From Lysobacterales bacterium (lineage in GTDB: Bacteria; Pseudomonadota; Gammaproteobacteria; Xanthomonadales; Xanthomonadaceae): 64,000 nucleotides of DNA. The stretch lies in NCBI GenBank assembly GCA_046318115.1, contig JBKCVA010000021.1:114-64113 (forward strand), read 5' to 3'. This document shows, in pieces, positions 23,878 through 29,552 of this stretch. The position numbers were made by a program, and so were the translations under genes. Under the pieces are notes generated by a model. That model did not search any database and was not told the DNA's origin. It saw only the letters and a list, made by a program, of their open reading frames with translations. Positions within the stretch are counted from its first letter, which is position 1, and every line of letters begins with the position of its first letter.

Positions 23878-24128
23878 CGGGTGCGCGTGGGCAAACCCTC
23901 GACAGACGGCCGGCTCCTCGGGACGCGCGTCCCTGCATCGCGATGCAGTATTCGCTGTGCTACGCCCCTCTGAAGGCGAGACGGAAGCAGGGCCCTCGCA
24001 GACGCTTCGGCCCATCCCCTCATCGACCCGCTCTCCGCTTTGGGCGCCCGTGCGCTCGAACGCGCTCAGCATCACACCGCGGGTCTGCTGGCTACGGCAG
24101 GATGGCGGCCCGTGTCACACTCTGTCAC

Positions 24129-24785
24129 ATGAAGTCGCGCATGCCGCCCAATCGCCTGCCCCTCCCCATGCGCCGCACCGGCCGCATTGCCGCCATGGCC
24201 GTTCTGCTCGTCCTCAGCGCGCCCGCAGCCCTTGCGTGGCCTCAGAAGGACGCATCGCCGGACACCTTCCCGCCGTTGGGGAGCCAGTGCGAGAGCCTGG
24301 ATGCAGAGCCGATCACCTACGGTATGCAGTACGACCTGCCCGGCAGTGGCCTGCCTGACGAAATCCGCGACATCCACGACGTGTGGCTGGCCGGTGGCTG
24401 CGTGGGCTGCCACAACCAGACCGCGATGGGCGGGCTCAGGCTGGACACCCCGGACTTCGCCGGCTACGAACTCGTGCTGGCCAACAGCTTCCGCAACAGC
24501 GAGATCTTTCGCGTCGTCCCCAACAGGCCGGAGTCGAGCCTGCTGTACGCGATGATCAACTGCACGCCCCCCGGCGACTACCCGTTCATGCCGCCGGCCA
24601 CGGACCAGTTGCCCGTTCGGCTGTCGCCACGGCTGCGCGCCCTTGTCTATGACTGGATCGCACAGGGCGCGCGGGGTTTCGATGCGTTCGGCGCGCCCTA
24701 CAGCGACGTGGTCTTCCGGGACTCGATGGAATCCTCGCGTCAACAATTCAACCTCGTGATGCCAACTCCGATGAGGACGCCGTGA
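24129..24785 (+). CDS. Secreted monoheme c-type cytochrome, planctomycete cytochrome C (PSCyt1)-like; start may be 24168
   Basis: Signal peptide, CVGCH, GGLRLD, RVVPNRPESSLL, MPP, YDWIAQGA. Confidence 0.8.
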   Translation: MKSRMPPNRLPLPMRRTGRIAAMAVLLVLSAPAALAWPQKDASPDTFPPLGSQCESLDAEPITYGMQYDLPGSGLPDEIRDIHDVWLAGGCVGCHNQTAMGGLRLDTPDFAGYELVLANSFRNSEIFRVVPNRPESSLLYAMINCTPPGDYPFMPPATDQLPVRLSPRLRALVYDWIAQGARGFDAFGAPYSDVVFRDSMESSRQQFNLVMPTPMRTP

Positions 24786-25279
24786 TCCTGAAAACCTTGC
24801 CAACGCTGCTCGCCGCTGCCGCACTGTCGATCTCGGCCGACGTCCGCGCAACCGGCGGCCCCAGCGGGTGCGCGCAGCTCCCGCTGGACACCTTCCCCAT
24901 CCGCTACGACGTCAGCTTCGAAGCGGACATCCGGCCCCTGTTGGATGTCCAATGCAGCACCTGCCACATCAACAGCAGCAACGGCGGCCTCAACTTCAAC
25001 CTGGCGAACGCCGTGAGCAATCTCTTGGGCGTCGATGAGCGTGGCCGCGCCGCCAACGGCGACGCCAGCATTCTCCGGGTGCGGCCCTTCGAGCCTTTGG
25101 CGAGCGCGCTTTTTCTCAAGATCAACTGCGATGTACCGCCCTTCGGATCGCAGATGCCGGGCGATGCAGCGCTGCAGGCCGCGGTCTACGACTGGATCGC
25201 GAACGGCGCGCTGATGCCCGATTCCGTCGGCGGGCAGCGCCTGTTCATCGGTCGCTTCGAGAGCATCCAGCGGCCCTGA
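24782..25279 (+). CDS. Secreted monoheme c-type cytochrome, PSCyt1-like paralogue
   Basis: Signal peptide, VSFEADIRPLL..CSTCH, GGLNF, RVRPFEPLASAL, QMP, YDWIANGA; GTGA overlap with the upstream paralogue. Confidence 0.8.
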   Translation: MILKTLPTLLAAAALSISADVRATGGPSGCAQLPLDTFPIRYDVSFEADIRPLLDVQCSTCHINSSNGGLNFNLANAVSNLLGVDERGRAANGDASILRVRPFEPLASALFLKINCDVPPFGSQMPGDAALQAAVYDWIANGALMPDSVGGQRLFIGRFESIQRP

Positions 25280-25314
25280 GCCGTCTGCGCGCATGCGCAG
25301 CCTGTATCAGCAAC

Positions 25315-25348
25315 AAAAAGGGCTGCCCGAAGGCAGCCCTTTCTGTTT
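25315..25348. terminator. Bidirectional intrinsic terminator between the cytochrome pair and DUF1501
   Basis: AAAAAGGGCTGCC-CGAA-GGCAGCCCTTTCTGTTT hairpin with A and T tracts on both sides. Confidence 0.85.
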
Positions 25349-25366
25349 CGTCGCTGCGTCCGGCAC

Positions 25367-27082
25367 TCAGACGGTGATGAAGGGCATCGTCTGCGTGTTG
25401 TAGGCCATCACCGCCGCATTGGGGTGCGAGCCGTTGGTGAATGCGCCGATGTTGGGGAACAACACCGGAATGTCGACTGCGCTCACGCCCATCCAGCGGG
25501 CAAACGTGGCCGACATCTGATCGACCGAACTGGTGGGCAGGAACTCGCCGCGGTTGAAGCTCTCACCGAGCAGGTCGGGGCCACCGGAGTAGCTGCGGTT
25601 CAACAGCTGCAGCGGGTAGCGTCCGTAGATCTGGCCACCATTCAACGGGCCACCCTCGCTGGACGGGCGACCGAACACCATCTGCACCGCGCCCCAAGCG
25701 TGGTCGGTGCCGCTGCCGTTCGAGTTGATCGTGCGCGCGAACTCGCTCTGGGTGAAACCCATGACTTCGTTCAGCACGCCGCTGTAACCCGGCACGTTGT
25801 TGAGCACCGCAATCGCTTCATAGAAGAAGTGCACGGCTTGCGCGACCTGCTGCAACAGGCCCTGATGACCTCCCCAGTTGCCATTGACCGGAGCGGCTGC
25901 CGGGATCTGCGCATCGTGGGTGTCGTAGCCACCCGTGCTGACATAGAAGACCTGGCGGTTGGCCGCGATGCTGAAGCCGCTGACGCCGGGCCGGGAGACC
26001 GCAATCATCCTGGCCACCTGACGCAGCTGGTTGCCCAGACCCGAGCCGGGGATGTTGTTGACCGCGGTGTTGAACGAAATCGTGTTGCCGGCCTGGGCCT
26101 GGGTGAAGCGGGTGTCCGTCCCCAGGAGACCGATGGCCTGGTTGATGCCGGTCGACAGATTCATCGAGCGATCGACGATCTGGCCGTACTCGTTGCTGAA
26201 GGCCTGCGGGTAGGTGGTGTTGAGCAGGCTCTCCAGCACCTCGCGGCGCTTGGTTCCGGCGAGATTGTTGCTGTTGTAGTTGTTGAGCGAGGTCGCCGGG
26301 TTGGTGCCGCTCGTCGACAGCCGGTAGGGGATCACCGGCTGGCCGCCGGTGTACTCACCGACAAGGAACCGGGTCTGGCCACTGATGGAAATGCAGGGCG
26401 AAAGACCACTCGCGGGCGATACCCCCAGCAGCCGGCCGGCCATCCGCCCACCCCAACCGCTGGGCTGGGAGGAGTTGGCGCCACCACCAATTTGCCAAAG
26501 GTTGGTCTGGTCGTTGTGCGAGTAGAGCTGCGGCGGCCGCTTCCAGGTGTTGAAGTTCTGCCGCCGAACGGGCTCGACCAGCGGGCCGACGTTGGCGATG
26601 AACGCAAGACGTCCCTGGTTGAACATGCGCCGAAGGCCGGTCTCGGTGCCCTGCCCTGCATTGTTCGCTGCCGCCGGGTTCAACGCATAGGGCACGCCCT
26701 GGAGCGCCAGCGCATTGGGCAGCTGGCCGCCGGCGCCACCGCCAACCAGCGGAATGCCCAGCTGGGAGCCGGAACCCTGGAAAAGACCTCCACGCGAGGT
26801 GACGTACCAGCCGTAGGGCGTGGGGCCGTAGGGCGCCAGCGCGGTGCGGCCCGCCACCGGAATCTGGGTGGTCGTGTCCGAGGGGATCAGCAGATTCCAC
26901 GAGTCGTTGCCGCCGGACAGGTAGATGCAGACCAGCGCCTTGTAGCCGCTCGGAGCGGACTGGGCGAGCGCCGTTCCCATCATGGAAAGCTGCGGAACGA
27001 AAGTGGCGGCCGCGCCGGAGGCGGCCATGCAGGCGGCGCCTTTCAGGAAGTCACGGCGCTTGTCGAAATGGATGCGGGACAT
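25367..27082 (-). CDS. DUF1501 family protein with Tat signal
   Basis: KRRDFLK twin-arginine motif; YKALVCIYLSGGNDSWN, LYSHNDQ, GGYDTH, SEFART..NGSGTDHAWG, PTSSVDQM. Confidence 0.9.
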   Translation of the reverse strand: MSRIHFDKRRDFLKGAACMAASGAAATFVPQLSMMGTALAQSAPSGYKALVCIYLSGGNDSWNLLIPSDTTTQIPVAGRTALAPYGPTPYGWYVTSRGGLFQGSGSQLGIPLVGGGAGGQLPNALALQGVPYALNPAAANNAGQGTETGLRRMFNQGRLAFIANVGPLVEPVRRQNFNTWKRPPQLYSHNDQTNLWQIGGGANSSQPSGWGGRMAGRLLGVSPASGLSPCISISGQTRFLVGEYTGGQPVIPYRLSTSGTNPATSLNNYNSNNLAGTKRREVLESLLNTTYPQAFSNEYGQIVDRSMNLSTGINQAIGLLGTDTRFTQAQAGNTISFNTAVNNIPGSGLGNQLRQVARMIAVSRPGVSGFSIAANRQVFYVSTGGYDTHDAQIPAAAPVNGNWGGHQGLLQQVAQAVHFFYEAIAVLNNVPGYSGVLNEVMGFTQSEFARTINSNGSGTDHAWGAVQMVFGRPSSEGGPLNGGQIYGRYPLQLLNRSYSGGPDLLGESFNRGEFLPTSSVDQMSATFARWMGVSAVDIPVLFPNIGAFTNGSHPNAAVMAYNTQTMPFITV

Positions 27083-27092
27083 GGCGTGCTCC

Positions 27093-29330
27093 TCAGCGCT
27101 GGGTGCTGTACTCGGGGGAGATGGCGATCAGGTGCATCATCAGCAGTGCCTTGCGACGCTTGCGCTCCGCCTGGGTGCCGTTGGTCGTGCCGTTGGTGCC
27201 GCCATTGAGGTTCTCGTTGAGGCCGCCACCGCAGCGCAGCGCATTCATCAGACGCCACTTCATGCCAGGTTCGGAGTTCAGGCAGTTGAAGCTGCCGGTG
27301 ATGTCGGCGCCGCTCATGGTGCCGCCCATCATGCGGACGTTGAAGAAGTTGATCAGCTCCATGTCCTGGGCCAGGGTGGCGGACGCAAGGTTGGAGTTGG
27401 CGGGCACGACGGCCGGCATCGCATCGATCTGGGCGGTGGGGAAATAGGCACGATCGGTCGGCAGCGTGAACGTGGTTCCGCAGTCGTTGCCACCGTAGCC
27501 GGAGCAGATGCGGGTGAACAGTTCATTGGCCACGGTGACCGCGCTCACCTCGTGGACGATCTGCAGCTCTGGCGAGAACAGACCCAAGCCCGCGATGGCT
27601 CCCGGCTGTCTGTAATCGGGCTCGTAGAAGTTGAAGACCGAGGGCGCGCCGTGCGGGCGCTGCGCGAAGATGTCCTGCGGATTGTTCGGGCCCCAGCGAC
27701 GCAGACTCGGCTGCCCGGCCAGCGGGTTCGCCTGGCCACCGCGCGGATTGGTCGCCGGGATGTTGGCGGTATCGCCCGAGCGCGCGCCGAAGTGGCGCCA
27801 GAGGGCCACCAGCTTCAGCATCGGCTCGCGAACCTTGCCGAAGTTCACCGGCTGCTGCGGGTCATTGGCGGGCCGGCGCGCCTCGATGTCGAGCAGGATC
27901 GCCGACACCACGGTCTTCATGTCACCGCGCACGCCCGATCCATTGTTGATGAAGGCGTCAGCGACCCGCTCCACGTAACCCGGGCTGGGGTTGGAAGTGA
28001 CCAGGCGCTGGATCAACTGGCGGGCCACCATCGGCGGCGTGTTCGGGTGGTTGAACAGGAAATCGATCGCCTGGTCGATACTGCCTTCGCAGTAGTTGAC
28101 GCAGGCCTGCTGCTGCTGGGCAGTCAGGTTTGTGGCGGCACAGTTCAGCGTGGCAATGCCATCGAAACTGGGAATGATCTCCAGTGTTCGGTCACCGCCG
28201 ACAGCGCCCAGCACCAGACGCTTGTTCGGTCCCGGGGAGCCCGGCGGCAGGTTGACGAGAGTCGACTCCGGGTCCGGCAGCTGGCCGCCCTGATTGTCGC
28301 GACCGGTGTCGTGGAACGCCGGGTAGCAGACCATGGGGCGGTAGAAGTCCGGATGGATCAGGCCGCGGTCCGTGATCGGGTCAGCGATGATGTTGGCCGT
28401 GTTGAACAGACGCGAGCCACCTTGTCCGAAGCGGCAGCCCACCCCGGTGCAAGCGGTCGCGTCGTTGGCGCCGCAATTGCGGTTGAAGGTGACACCGCCT
28501 GCGGTGGATGCGCCCTGGGTGCAGGTATGGGACAGGCCTGTGAAGACTCGCGCGAGGTTCGCAATGTCCTCTTCGTTGTACGTGGTCAGCGTCAGATCCG
28601 GATTCTGCGGGTCGGTGACCGTGGTGTAGAAGTTCTTCTCACGCACGAGCAGGCCGATCGAGAACAGCTGCATGATCTCGCGGGCGTAGTTCTCGTCCGG
28701 CTGCACGCCGTTGTTGCCCGCCGTGTAAGTGCCGTTCGAGTTCAGCAAGAGGAAGCGCTGGTTGCGCAGCGAAGTGAGGTAGCGGCCCATCATCGGGCTG
28801 TAGCTGACCTCGCGGAGGAGATCGCGGTAATTGCCGAGCGCGTGGCGGACGAGGATGTCGTTCCACTCCGCCATCATGATTTCCTGGTCGATCAGGAACG
28901 CATCGCGGTCCGAGGCCACCACGAACTGCGACAGCGCCCACGCGACCCGCTGCCGGACCTGATCCGGCGCATTGACCGCGACGTCATACCAGCGTTGGAC
29001 GCGCTGGTCCTGACTCACGCCACCGGTCGCAAGCGAGGCCGTGTAAGCCTCCAGCCACGGGCGCGAGAGCGTCACCGTACCGAGGTTGAGCTGGGCCGAC
29101 AGCCATCCGCTCACGCCCTGCGTACGCACCGCTGAGATGTCCGCCGCGGTCGCGCCGAACGTCGCCTGGTTCAGGAATCGCGCGGCTTCGCCGTCGTTCG
29201 CCGGGTTGTTGAACGGAACCTCGAACGAGTTCGAGAAGATCGGATCGTCCGCCCGGCTGACCGGGGCGAACAGAGAGGCGGCCAGAGCGGCCAAGGCCAG
29301 CAGGAGGCTGGTCAAGCGTGCGGATGTCAT
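27093..29330 (-). CDS. DUF1800 family protein, exported
   Basis: AARFLNQATFG, DQVRQRVAWALSQFVV, GNYRDLLREVS.SPMMG.YL, PDENYAREIMQLFSIGL, HPNTPP, VTSNPSP, GKVREP, APSVFNFY. Confidence 0.92.
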   Translation of the reverse strand: MTSARLTSLLLALAALAASLFAPVSRADDPIFSNSFEVPFNNPANDGEAARFLNQATFGATAADISAVRTQGVSGWLSAQLNLGTVTLSRPWLEAYTASLATGGVSQDQRVQRWYDVAVNAPDQVRQRVAWALSQFVVASDRDAFLIDQEIMMAEWNDILVRHALGNYRDLLREVSYSPMMGRYLTSLRNQRFLLLNSNGTYTAGNNGVQPDENYAREIMQLFSIGLLVREKNFYTTVTDPQNPDLTLTTYNEEDIANLARVFTGLSHTCTQGASTAGGVTFNRNCGANDATACTGVGCRFGQGGSRLFNTANIIADPITDRGLIHPDFYRPMVCYPAFHDTGRDNQGGQLPDPESTLVNLPPGSPGPNKRLVLGAVGGDRTLEIIPSFDGIATLNCAATNLTAQQQQACVNYCEGSIDQAIDFLFNHPNTPPMVARQLIQRLVTSNPSPGYVERVADAFINNGSGVRGDMKTVVSAILLDIEARRPANDPQQPVNFGKVREPMLKLVALWRHFGARSGDTANIPATNPRGGQANPLAGQPSLRRWGPNNPQDIFAQRPHGAPSVFNFYEPDYRQPGAIAGLGLFSPELQIVHEVSAVTVANELFTRICSGYGGNDCGTTFTLPTDRAYFPTAQIDAMPAVVPANSNLASATLAQDMELINFFNVRMMGGTMSGADITGSFNCLNSEPGMKWRLMNALRCGGGLNENLNGGTNGTTNGTQAERKRRKALLMMHLIAISPEYSTQR

Positions 29331-29552
29331 GCGGATTCCCCCGGGCAGGAAGGGCGGTGAAACGATTTTTTACTCTAACCCGGGAAAAACAATTGAAAAC
29401 TTGGCCGAGCCCGCAGCCCCGATAAACGGTAGCAGAACCCCGCTGACACATCGCGTCACATTCTGCACTTGCGCGGCAAAGCGTGGAATCGAGTGTGAAG
29501 ACGCCACCCCGCCCGACCGGCGCTGGCGATCCGCGCCCGGATCCCGCCCGCT

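Follow-up and report, generated by a model that had tools for sequence, protein, structure and literature searches.

Positions 24129-29330 of the stretch of DNA that we analyzed (64,000 nucleotides of a Lysobacterales genome, contig JBKCVA010000021.1; here called the window) hold four genes for predicted exported proteins. Two of them, cytA and cytB, encode c-type cytochromes on the forward strand, and they converge on a DUF1800 gene and a DUF1501 gene on the reverse strand. We found that the linkage of such cytochromes to DUF1800-DUF1501 pairs is real, and that it recurs in other genomes in several gene orders and between differing flanking genes. The four genes very probably make up one conserved functional module. 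That CytA and CytB serve as direct, dedicated electron carriers of a periplasmic DUF1800/DUF1501 redox enzyme has, in our judgment, about an even chance of being correct. The original prediction for this locus was a redox-coupled enzyme complex. That interpretation is supported as far as computation can test it, and the redox-coupled complex itself is what we infer from the observations below.

To examine linkage in other genomes, we scanned the nearest DUF1501 relatives at the species level, with one genome per species (79 loci), applying a profile hidden Markov model (HMM) of the cytochrome to the 2.5 kb that follow DUF1501. The cytochrome was found in 39 loci and not in 34, and 6 were cut by contig ends, giving 39 of 73 evaluable loci. 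It was co-directional in 25 of the 39, lying 40 to 160 nt after DUF1501, and convergent in 14. Three gene orders were seen: convergent, DUF1800-DUF1501-cytochrome, and cytochrome-DUF1800-DUF1501. When loci were grouped by identity to the window DUF1501, a cytochrome was present in 13 of 14 evaluable loci at 60% or more, in 17 of 20 at 41-46%, and in 9 of 39 at 35-41%. Its presence was strongly clustered on a DUF1501 tree. The clade that includes the window (n = 37; Shimodaira-Hasegawa-like approximate likelihood ratio test [SH-aLRT] support of 100) had it in 31 of 35 evaluable loci. An inner clade (n = 15, SH-aLRT 100) held nearly all of the convergent loci, with 14 of its 15 members arranged that way and the other, L068, having no cytochrome; one further convergent locus, L076, fell outside it. 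Going by the names that close homologues carry, the organism belongs in or beside the genus Aquimonas (order Lysobacterales/Xanthomonadales). Among same-genus genomes, 9 of 10 had the convergent, window-type locus. The flanks differed from locus to locus: DUF969/DUF979 and a Ser/Thr kinase, sbtA/P-II and trpS (the window type), or a 4HBT thioesterase. Clustering of open reading frames (ORFs) in 44 loci gave no module genes beyond DUF1800, DUF1501, and the cytochrome. The predicted linkage is present in other genomes.

A second locus in the same genome, on contig C28, has the order cytochrome-DUF1800-DUF1501 on one strand, and three other same-genus genomes have it too. The C28 cytochrome (C28:454-972; L170, L024, L025, and L029) has C-G/A-Q-N-C-H, a C-x3-CH arrangement, in place of CxxCH, and this is kept in four genomes. 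In a set of 41 related genomes, DUF1501 was present in 20 of the 21 with the cytochrome domain versus 12 of the 20 without it (Fisher p = 0.009, a test that ignores phylogeny). About half of the cytochrome-domain hits in these 41 genomes adjoin a DUF1800-DUF1501 pair.

A cytochrome tree had three separate lineages, made up of 13 cytA orthologues, 11 cytB orthologues, and 15 co-directional cytochromes that belong to sister clades. Therefore, cytA and cytB are old paralogues, which rules out a recent tandem duplication. Because these three lineages are separate and old, the partnership with DUF1800-DUF1501 has either survived rearrangement or been made again. These data also bear on the idea that the genes are hitch-hikers, brought together at an insertion-tolerant spot with a terminator in common but without any functional link. 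The two units of the window are convergent, and hence not one operon, and most DUF1800-DUF1501 pairs have no cytochrome, both of which would suit that idea. However, it does not fit the three gene orders, which include true operon positions 40 to 160 nt after DUF1501, or the adjacency that is kept down to approximately 36% DUF1501 identity across differing flanks and cytochrome lineages. The proportion of cytochrome-domain hits that lie beside a pair in the 41 related genomes, about half, also speaks against it. We disfavor hitch-hiking and consider it very unlikely.

Within the window, cytA (24129..24785, + strand) is an ORF that encodes a 218-aa protein predicted to be a Sec-exported, PSCyt1-like monoheme c-type cytochrome, with its heme motif CVGCH at 24399-24413 (+ strand). 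The cytB gene (24782..25279, + strand) has a GTG start and encodes a predicted second monoheme cytochrome of 165 aa (137.8 bits to the family profile), with its motif CSTCH at 24953-24967 (+ strand). The two genes overlap by GTGA, with a GAGGA placed 5 nt ahead of the cytB start codon. Their products are 31% identical over 137 aa (E 5e-13), so the coupled and paralogous cytochrome genes that had been proposed were borne out. DUF1800 (27093..29330, - strand; 745 aa, Sec signal) and DUF1501 (25367..27082, - strand; 571 aa, Tat signal) also have the operon arrangement that had been expected, with a 10-nt spacer containing GGAG between the DUF1800 stop and the DUF1501 start. Between the two units, at 25311..25348, is a hairpin terminator with an 11-bp stem (25317-25342), preceded by an A-run and followed by a T-run, which makes it a predicted terminator for both strands. 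The bidirectional terminator of the original prediction is therefore present, and its sequence occurs only once in the genome.

We aligned 47 cytochrome homologues drawn from DUF1800-DUF1501 neighborhoods. With cytA numbering, C54, C91-x-x-C94-H95, S137, C145 (in INC), M154-P155, and D175-W-I..G-A were invariant in all 47. This pattern is that of a predicted His/Met-ligated c-type heme plus one additional disulfide. The heme maturation gene ccmE is encoded in the genome. The CxxCH, GGL, RVxPxxPxxSxL, INC, MP, and YDWIAxGA motifs that had been listed for both proteins are present, and the extra Cys pair noted outside the heme site corresponds to the invariant C54 and C145. The DTFP motif that had been listed with them is not kept by orthologues, and we attribute its occurrence in both proteins to chance.

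Assignment to the PSCyt1 family (PF07635), which had been proposed from the sequence, needed more than a Pfam search. CytA scored 20.8 bits, just below the 22-bit cut-off, and CytB was not detected by the PSCyt1 model and had nothing above threshold in Pfam or NCBIfam. However, 28 of the 47 aligned homologues matched PSCyt1 at an E value of 0.01 or less, and one operon-type homologue scored 27.6 bits. When the cytochrome family profile was compared by hhalign with a true PSCyt1-PSCyt2-PSD1 protein, it aligned to the first of the PSCyt1 domains with a probability of 97.4% (E 1e-11). Therefore, we place CytA and CytB in this family by profile comparison and not by Pfam alone. In public runs X4, X14, and X19, a 9-nt insertion, GCCGCACCG (three codons), was present at window position 24171, in the signal peptide region of cytA.

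DUF1501 matched PF07394 with 43.4 bits (cut-off 27), and the family assignment was therefore upheld, with the match confined to residues 374-489. This restricted match marks the window protein as a member of a remote subfamily. A classical DUF1501 scores 470 bits against Pfam, versus 43 bits here, and an hhalign comparison of the window clade with classical DUF1501 aligned only the C-terminal EF-x-R...G-x-DH region. The twin-arginine signal that had been proposed was found by TIGR01409 (21.5 bits, cut-off 16.7), and in an alignment of 63 sequences of the window's clade R9, R10, and F12 of RRDFLK (the RR-x-F motif, 27041-27058, - strand) were invariant. Four other groups of residues were invariant in these 63 sequences: G57-G58-x-D60-x-x-N63, S188-H189-x-D191-Q192, D387-x-H389, and D460-H461.

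An AlphaFold2 (AF2) model of DUF1501 had a mean predicted local distance difference test score (pLDDT) of 78.8 and a predicted template modeling score (pTM) of 0.83, with low confidence in the SHxDQ loop (residues 185-193). A sequence search found no related solved structure. The structural relatives that Foldseek gave for the model in the PDB were all sulfatases, alkaline phosphatase, or phosphonate monoester hydrolase, and the best hits were sulfatases. From these weak structural matches, the core is predicted to be alkaline phosphatase/sulfatase-like with an Asp/His metal-type site. Pfam assigns DUF1501 to the alkaline phosphatase clan. The likeness to the alkaline phosphatase superfamily and to type I sulfatases may extend to DH-type Asp/His motifs at strand ends, but the template modeling (TM) score was only approximately 0.27. 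A regular-expression search of DUF1501 did not find the formylglycine motif C/S-x-P/A-x-R, and we rejected a type I sulfatase for this reason. A heme motif was not found in DUF1501 either. In the public runs X14 and X19 there is a dense patch of approximately 30 substitutions in DUF1501, at window positions 25526-25964, and X11 is alike from 25829 onwards. The spacing of these substitutions is mostly three bases, and the patch looks like a recombination tract.

DUF1800 was confirmed by PF08811 with 232.5 bits (cut-off 26.1), in two stretches split by a Cys-rich insert of approximately 130 aa (residues ~287-420). Nine of its 12 Cys residues are invariant and another is nearly so, and the insert has an invariant H326-P-D328...C335-Y...D341-x-G motif. 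The AF2 model was confident (pLDDT 86.9, pTM 0.88), and searches of the PDB gave neither a fold match (best E 1.2) nor a sequence match. A Pfam scan found no PSCyt2 (PF07583) or PSD1 (PF07587) domain in any of the four window proteins. We also considered DUF1800 as a remote PSCyt2/PSD1 homologue, but hhalign gave a probability of 0.4% in what was a weak test with a single-sequence template. The idea that DUF1800 is a proteobacterial form of PSD1 is therefore unsupported.

RNA evidence came from four runs (two metatranscriptomes and two labeled transcriptomic), using contigs at ≥99% or 95-99% identity. Contigs of these runs covered all four genes at a similar word depth of approximately 5 to 10, although such depths say little about co-expression and are too crude for quantification. 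One RNA contig covered both cytA and cytB (24128-25264). In three of the four runs an RNA contig ended at 25348-25350, and no RNA contig of any of the four covered 25265-25347, the terminator stretch, whereas contigs of four DNA runs passed through it. RNA coverage of the genes neighboring the module was uneven, which argues against DNA carry-over. Therefore, transcripts of all four genes occur together in these samples, contrary to the lack of co-expression that would have counted against the original prediction, and both transcripts appear to stop at the hairpin. In two runs RNA contigs stopped at 29345-29346, and depth dropped upstream of there. The AT-rich intergenic region that follows trpS and lies upstream of DUF1800 (29331..29552, - strand) is likely to hold the promoter of the DUF1800-DUF1501 operon. 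In DNA run X5, the hairpin (25311-25342) was on very short contigs at approximately 150x, versus approximately 8x for its flanks. Therefore, the same hairpin must be frequent in other parts of that metagenome.

Operons of DUF1800 and DUF1501, the latter with a Tat signal, have been described, without a function (Goncalves et al. 2016, PMC5122149). In Planctomycetes and Verrucomicrobia, DUF1501 occurs with PSCyt1, PSCyt2, and PSD1, also without a known function, and electron transport has been suggested (Kamneva et al. 2012, PMC3542564); the same DUF1501/PSCyt gene organization was noted by He et al. (2017, PMC5615132). The family pairings and uncharacterized status that the original prediction had given as background are thus confirmed by PMC5122149 and PMC3542564. 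We did not find a functional study of DUF1501, DUF1800, or PSCyt in the literature, and two other mentions of DUF1800 gave no useful information. The literature that we found, including these three papers, has no cytochrome partner for DUF1800-DUF1501.

The window module resembles the DUF1501-PSCyt modules of Planctomycetes, Verrucomicrobia, and Lentisphaerae in that a Tat-exported DUF1501 is partnered by a PSCyt1-type c-heme domain. It differs in that its heme domain is free-standing (165-218 aa) with an extra conserved disulfide, and in that its large partner is DUF1800 rather than PSCyt2/PSD1. Proteobacterial DUF1800-DUF1501 operons (PMC5122149) share with it the families, their order, the tight coupling, and the Tat signal on DUF1501, but the window clade has, in addition, one or two PSCyt1-type cytochromes as well as the Cys-rich DUF1800 insert. 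What is new here is a DUF1501/PSCyt kind of system in which free-standing PSCyt1-type cytochromes occur with DUF1800 in place of PSCyt2/PSD1. PSD1 itself is rare, occurring in 1 of 301 Pseudomonadota genomes, with one classical pair. The classical pair at L138 (G332:C5:999000-1015000) has a protein with two PSCyt1 domains, PSCyt2, and PSD1 (1077 aa) beside a Tat-DUF1501 (512 aa). By eye, its neighbors resemble sugar-phosphate isomerase/epimerase-type proteins, Gfo/Idh/MocA-type oxidoreductases, and a LacI-type regulator.

The same cytochrome family also occurs with other enzymes. Contig C110 of the same genome (C110:8093-10115; L172:5094-7116) has a third cytochrome paralogue followed directly by a full-length gene of the glucose/sorbosone dehydrogenase (GSDH) family (PF07995, 458 bits), and this pair is kept in seven further genomes (L033, L035, and L039-L043). 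Other same-genus genomes have exported GSDH-PKD-cytochrome fusions (ORFs of 877-1003 aa). The same domain ends exported proteins of approximately 1000 aa that have two heme motifs and, in the middle, a hydrazine-synthase-alpha domain (PF18582, 43 bits); large proteins ending in the cytochrome domain are at L030:8654-11284 (- strand), L031, L048:6708-9797, and L051. A DUF1800-DUF1501-GSDH-like operon on contig C78 (C78:117300-122033; L169) is kept in 6 of 6 same-genus genomes checked (L173-L178). Therefore, pair-cytochrome, cytochrome-GSDH, and pair-GSDH associations all exist within one genus.

In quinohemoprotein-type dehydrogenases, a pyrroloquinoline quinone (PQQ) enzyme is joined by a cytochrome c, either as a domain or as a partner. 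They are the best analogy for the role of the cytochrome, which here shares a protein or an operon with GSDH, and the C110 pair looks like a two-gene system of this type. The window differs in that the partner is an alkaline-phosphatase-fold protein plus DUF1800 and not a PQQ beta-propeller. By this analogy, electron transfer is the best reading for the cytochrome domain, and the DUF1800/DUF1501 unit is best read as exchanging electrons with the cytochrome or as part of the same periplasmic oxidative pathway.

A different role for the heme proteins would be as accessory factors, either a maturase that oxidatively modifies exported DUF1501, in the manner of formylglycine formation, or a heme sensor or ligand-binding subunit. 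The invariant SHxDQ loop of DUF1501, modeled with low confidence, could be a modification site, and two different cytochromes are retained in most Aquimonas-type loci. However, DUF1501 has no C/S-x-P-x-R motif, the His/Met-type ligation suggested by the invariant Met-Pro is typical of electron carriers and not of catalytic or sensory hemes, and the position of the same domain at the C terminus of dehydrogenases is that of an electron-transfer module. We regard an accessory role as unlikely.

Coupling might also exist at the level of a pathway. DUF1501/DUF1800 would then be a hydrolase or transferase, which for example removes or transfers a phosphate- or sulfate-type group of a periplasmic sugar or glycan. 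A second enzyme, a dehydrogenase of the PQQ-type GSDH kind for instance, would oxidize its product with the cytochromes as electron acceptor. This would suit the alkaline phosphatase/sulfatase-like core with its conserved metal-type Asp/His residues, the pairing and fusion of the cytochrome family with GSDH, and the GSDH gene that follows another DUF1800-DUF1501 pair. Neighboring genes also suggest glycans. In a clade of Pseudoxanthomonas, Lysobacter, and Thermomonas, a GT2 glycosyltransferase gene (PF00535, 76 bits) adjoins DUF1800-DUF1501, either upstream or downstream (L113, L117, L121, L122, L125, L128-L130, and L134), and an association of DUF1800-DUF1501 with chitin synthase has been reported (PMC5122149). 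The GSDH, GT2, and chitin synthase neighbors of paralogous loci point weakly to sugars or glycans as substrates. However, the window module has no dehydrogenase gene, and the GSDH genes that we examined in this genome have their own cytochrome (C110) or none (C78). Furthermore, the cytochrome is co-inherited with the DUF1800-DUF1501 pair and not with a dehydrogenase, which is a better fit to a direct partner. Indirect coupling of this kind is possible but fairly improbable.

We therefore favor direct electron transfer over the alternatives and propose the following mechanism. DUF1800 (Sec-exported and disulfide-rich) and DUF1501 (Tat-exported, with a predicted Asp/His metal site) are made from one operon and presumably form a periplasmic catalytic unit. 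CytA and CytB would come from a bicistron with translational coupling, which that operon meets at the shared terminator. Each would carry one His/Met-ligated heme, attached by the Ccm system, and one conserved disulfide, and together they would link a DUF1800/DUF1501 redox reaction to the respiratory chain. In the same genomes, PQQ-type (GSDH) dehydrogenases appear to be served likewise by this cytochrome family. Physical association of the proteins, the direction of electron flow, and a DUF1501/DUF1800 chemistry that is redox rather than purely hydrolytic are the parts of this scheme that we infer, whereas the gene layout, the export signals, the conserved heme and metal residues, the synteny, and transcription are what the data show.

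Several observations weigh against this mechanism. At 35-41% DUF1501 identity, 30 of 39 evaluable loci have no cytochrome, and although there are 3 to 5 DUF1800-DUF1501 pairs per genome, only roughly 1 in 6 has a cytochrome neighbor. Therefore, the cytochrome is not essential to the core pair. Among 400 evenly sampled Gammaproteobacteria, no PSCyt1-like hit lay beside a pair outside the order, in a test that covered 24 other genomes with PSCyt1-like hits and used 1.5-kb flanks only and clade-specific HMMs. DUF1501 does not have any redox-cofactor motif, and its best Foldseek match was weak (E 3e-4, probability 0.91, with the low TM score given above). Enzymes with the alkaline phosphatase fold are typically hydrolases or transferases. 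No fusion protein points to contact of the cytochromes with DUF1501 or DUF1800, and the RNA contig depths are a blunt indicator of co-expression.

There is a redox precedent on this fold, in that E. coli alkaline phosphatase oxidizes phosphite. A broader and more tentative idea is that DUF1800-DUF1501 is no hydrolase pair but represents a new Tat-dependent class of periplasmic redox enzymes on an alkaline phosphatase scaffold, wired to the respiratory chain by dedicated PSCyt1-type cytochromes, and that the Lysobacterales and planctomycete modules are two forms of a single widespread extracytoplasmic oxidation system. We consider this less likely than not.

Of the exported families without a known function, DUF1501 and DUF1800 belong to the more abundant, with dozens of copies in Planctomycetes, and the papers that we found offer no lead on their biochemistry past "possibly electron transport". 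The linkage, conserved in many related bacteria of freshwater and soil, hints at electron-transfer chemistry of the widespread DUF1800/DUF1501 pair outside the cytoplasm. Four soluble proteins with a spectroscopic read-out from heme would be a tractable system for testing redox chemistry of the pair, and the link to GSDH and glycosyltransferases narrows the substrate search to sugars and glycans. Among the cultivable Lysobacterales that have the partnership are Aquimonas voraii DSM 16957, Dokdonella immobilis CGMCC 1.7659, and Pseudomarimonas arenosa CAU 1598.

Three of the window proteins also have a terminal tag of the form hydrophobic-F-x-(D/N/S)-(G/S)-F-E. It is at the C terminus of CytA (~24700-24730) and CytB (~25240-25270), and as PIFSNSFE at the mature N terminus of DUF1800 (~29220-29245, - strand). 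Genome-wide, the tag is within 25 aa of the C terminus in 75 ORFs, versus approximately 10 expected, and these ORFs mostly terminate in ...GFE plus 0 to 3 residues. We considered such F-x-x-G/S-F-E tags as evidence for docking between the cytochromes and DUF1800 and rejected this, because the same tag ends approximately 75 unrelated ORFs of the genome. More probably, exported proteins carry this tag at their termini in general. The GSDH-like protein of C78 has the tag at its end, and DUF1800 paralogues on contigs C21 and C44 have it at the mature N terminus instead.

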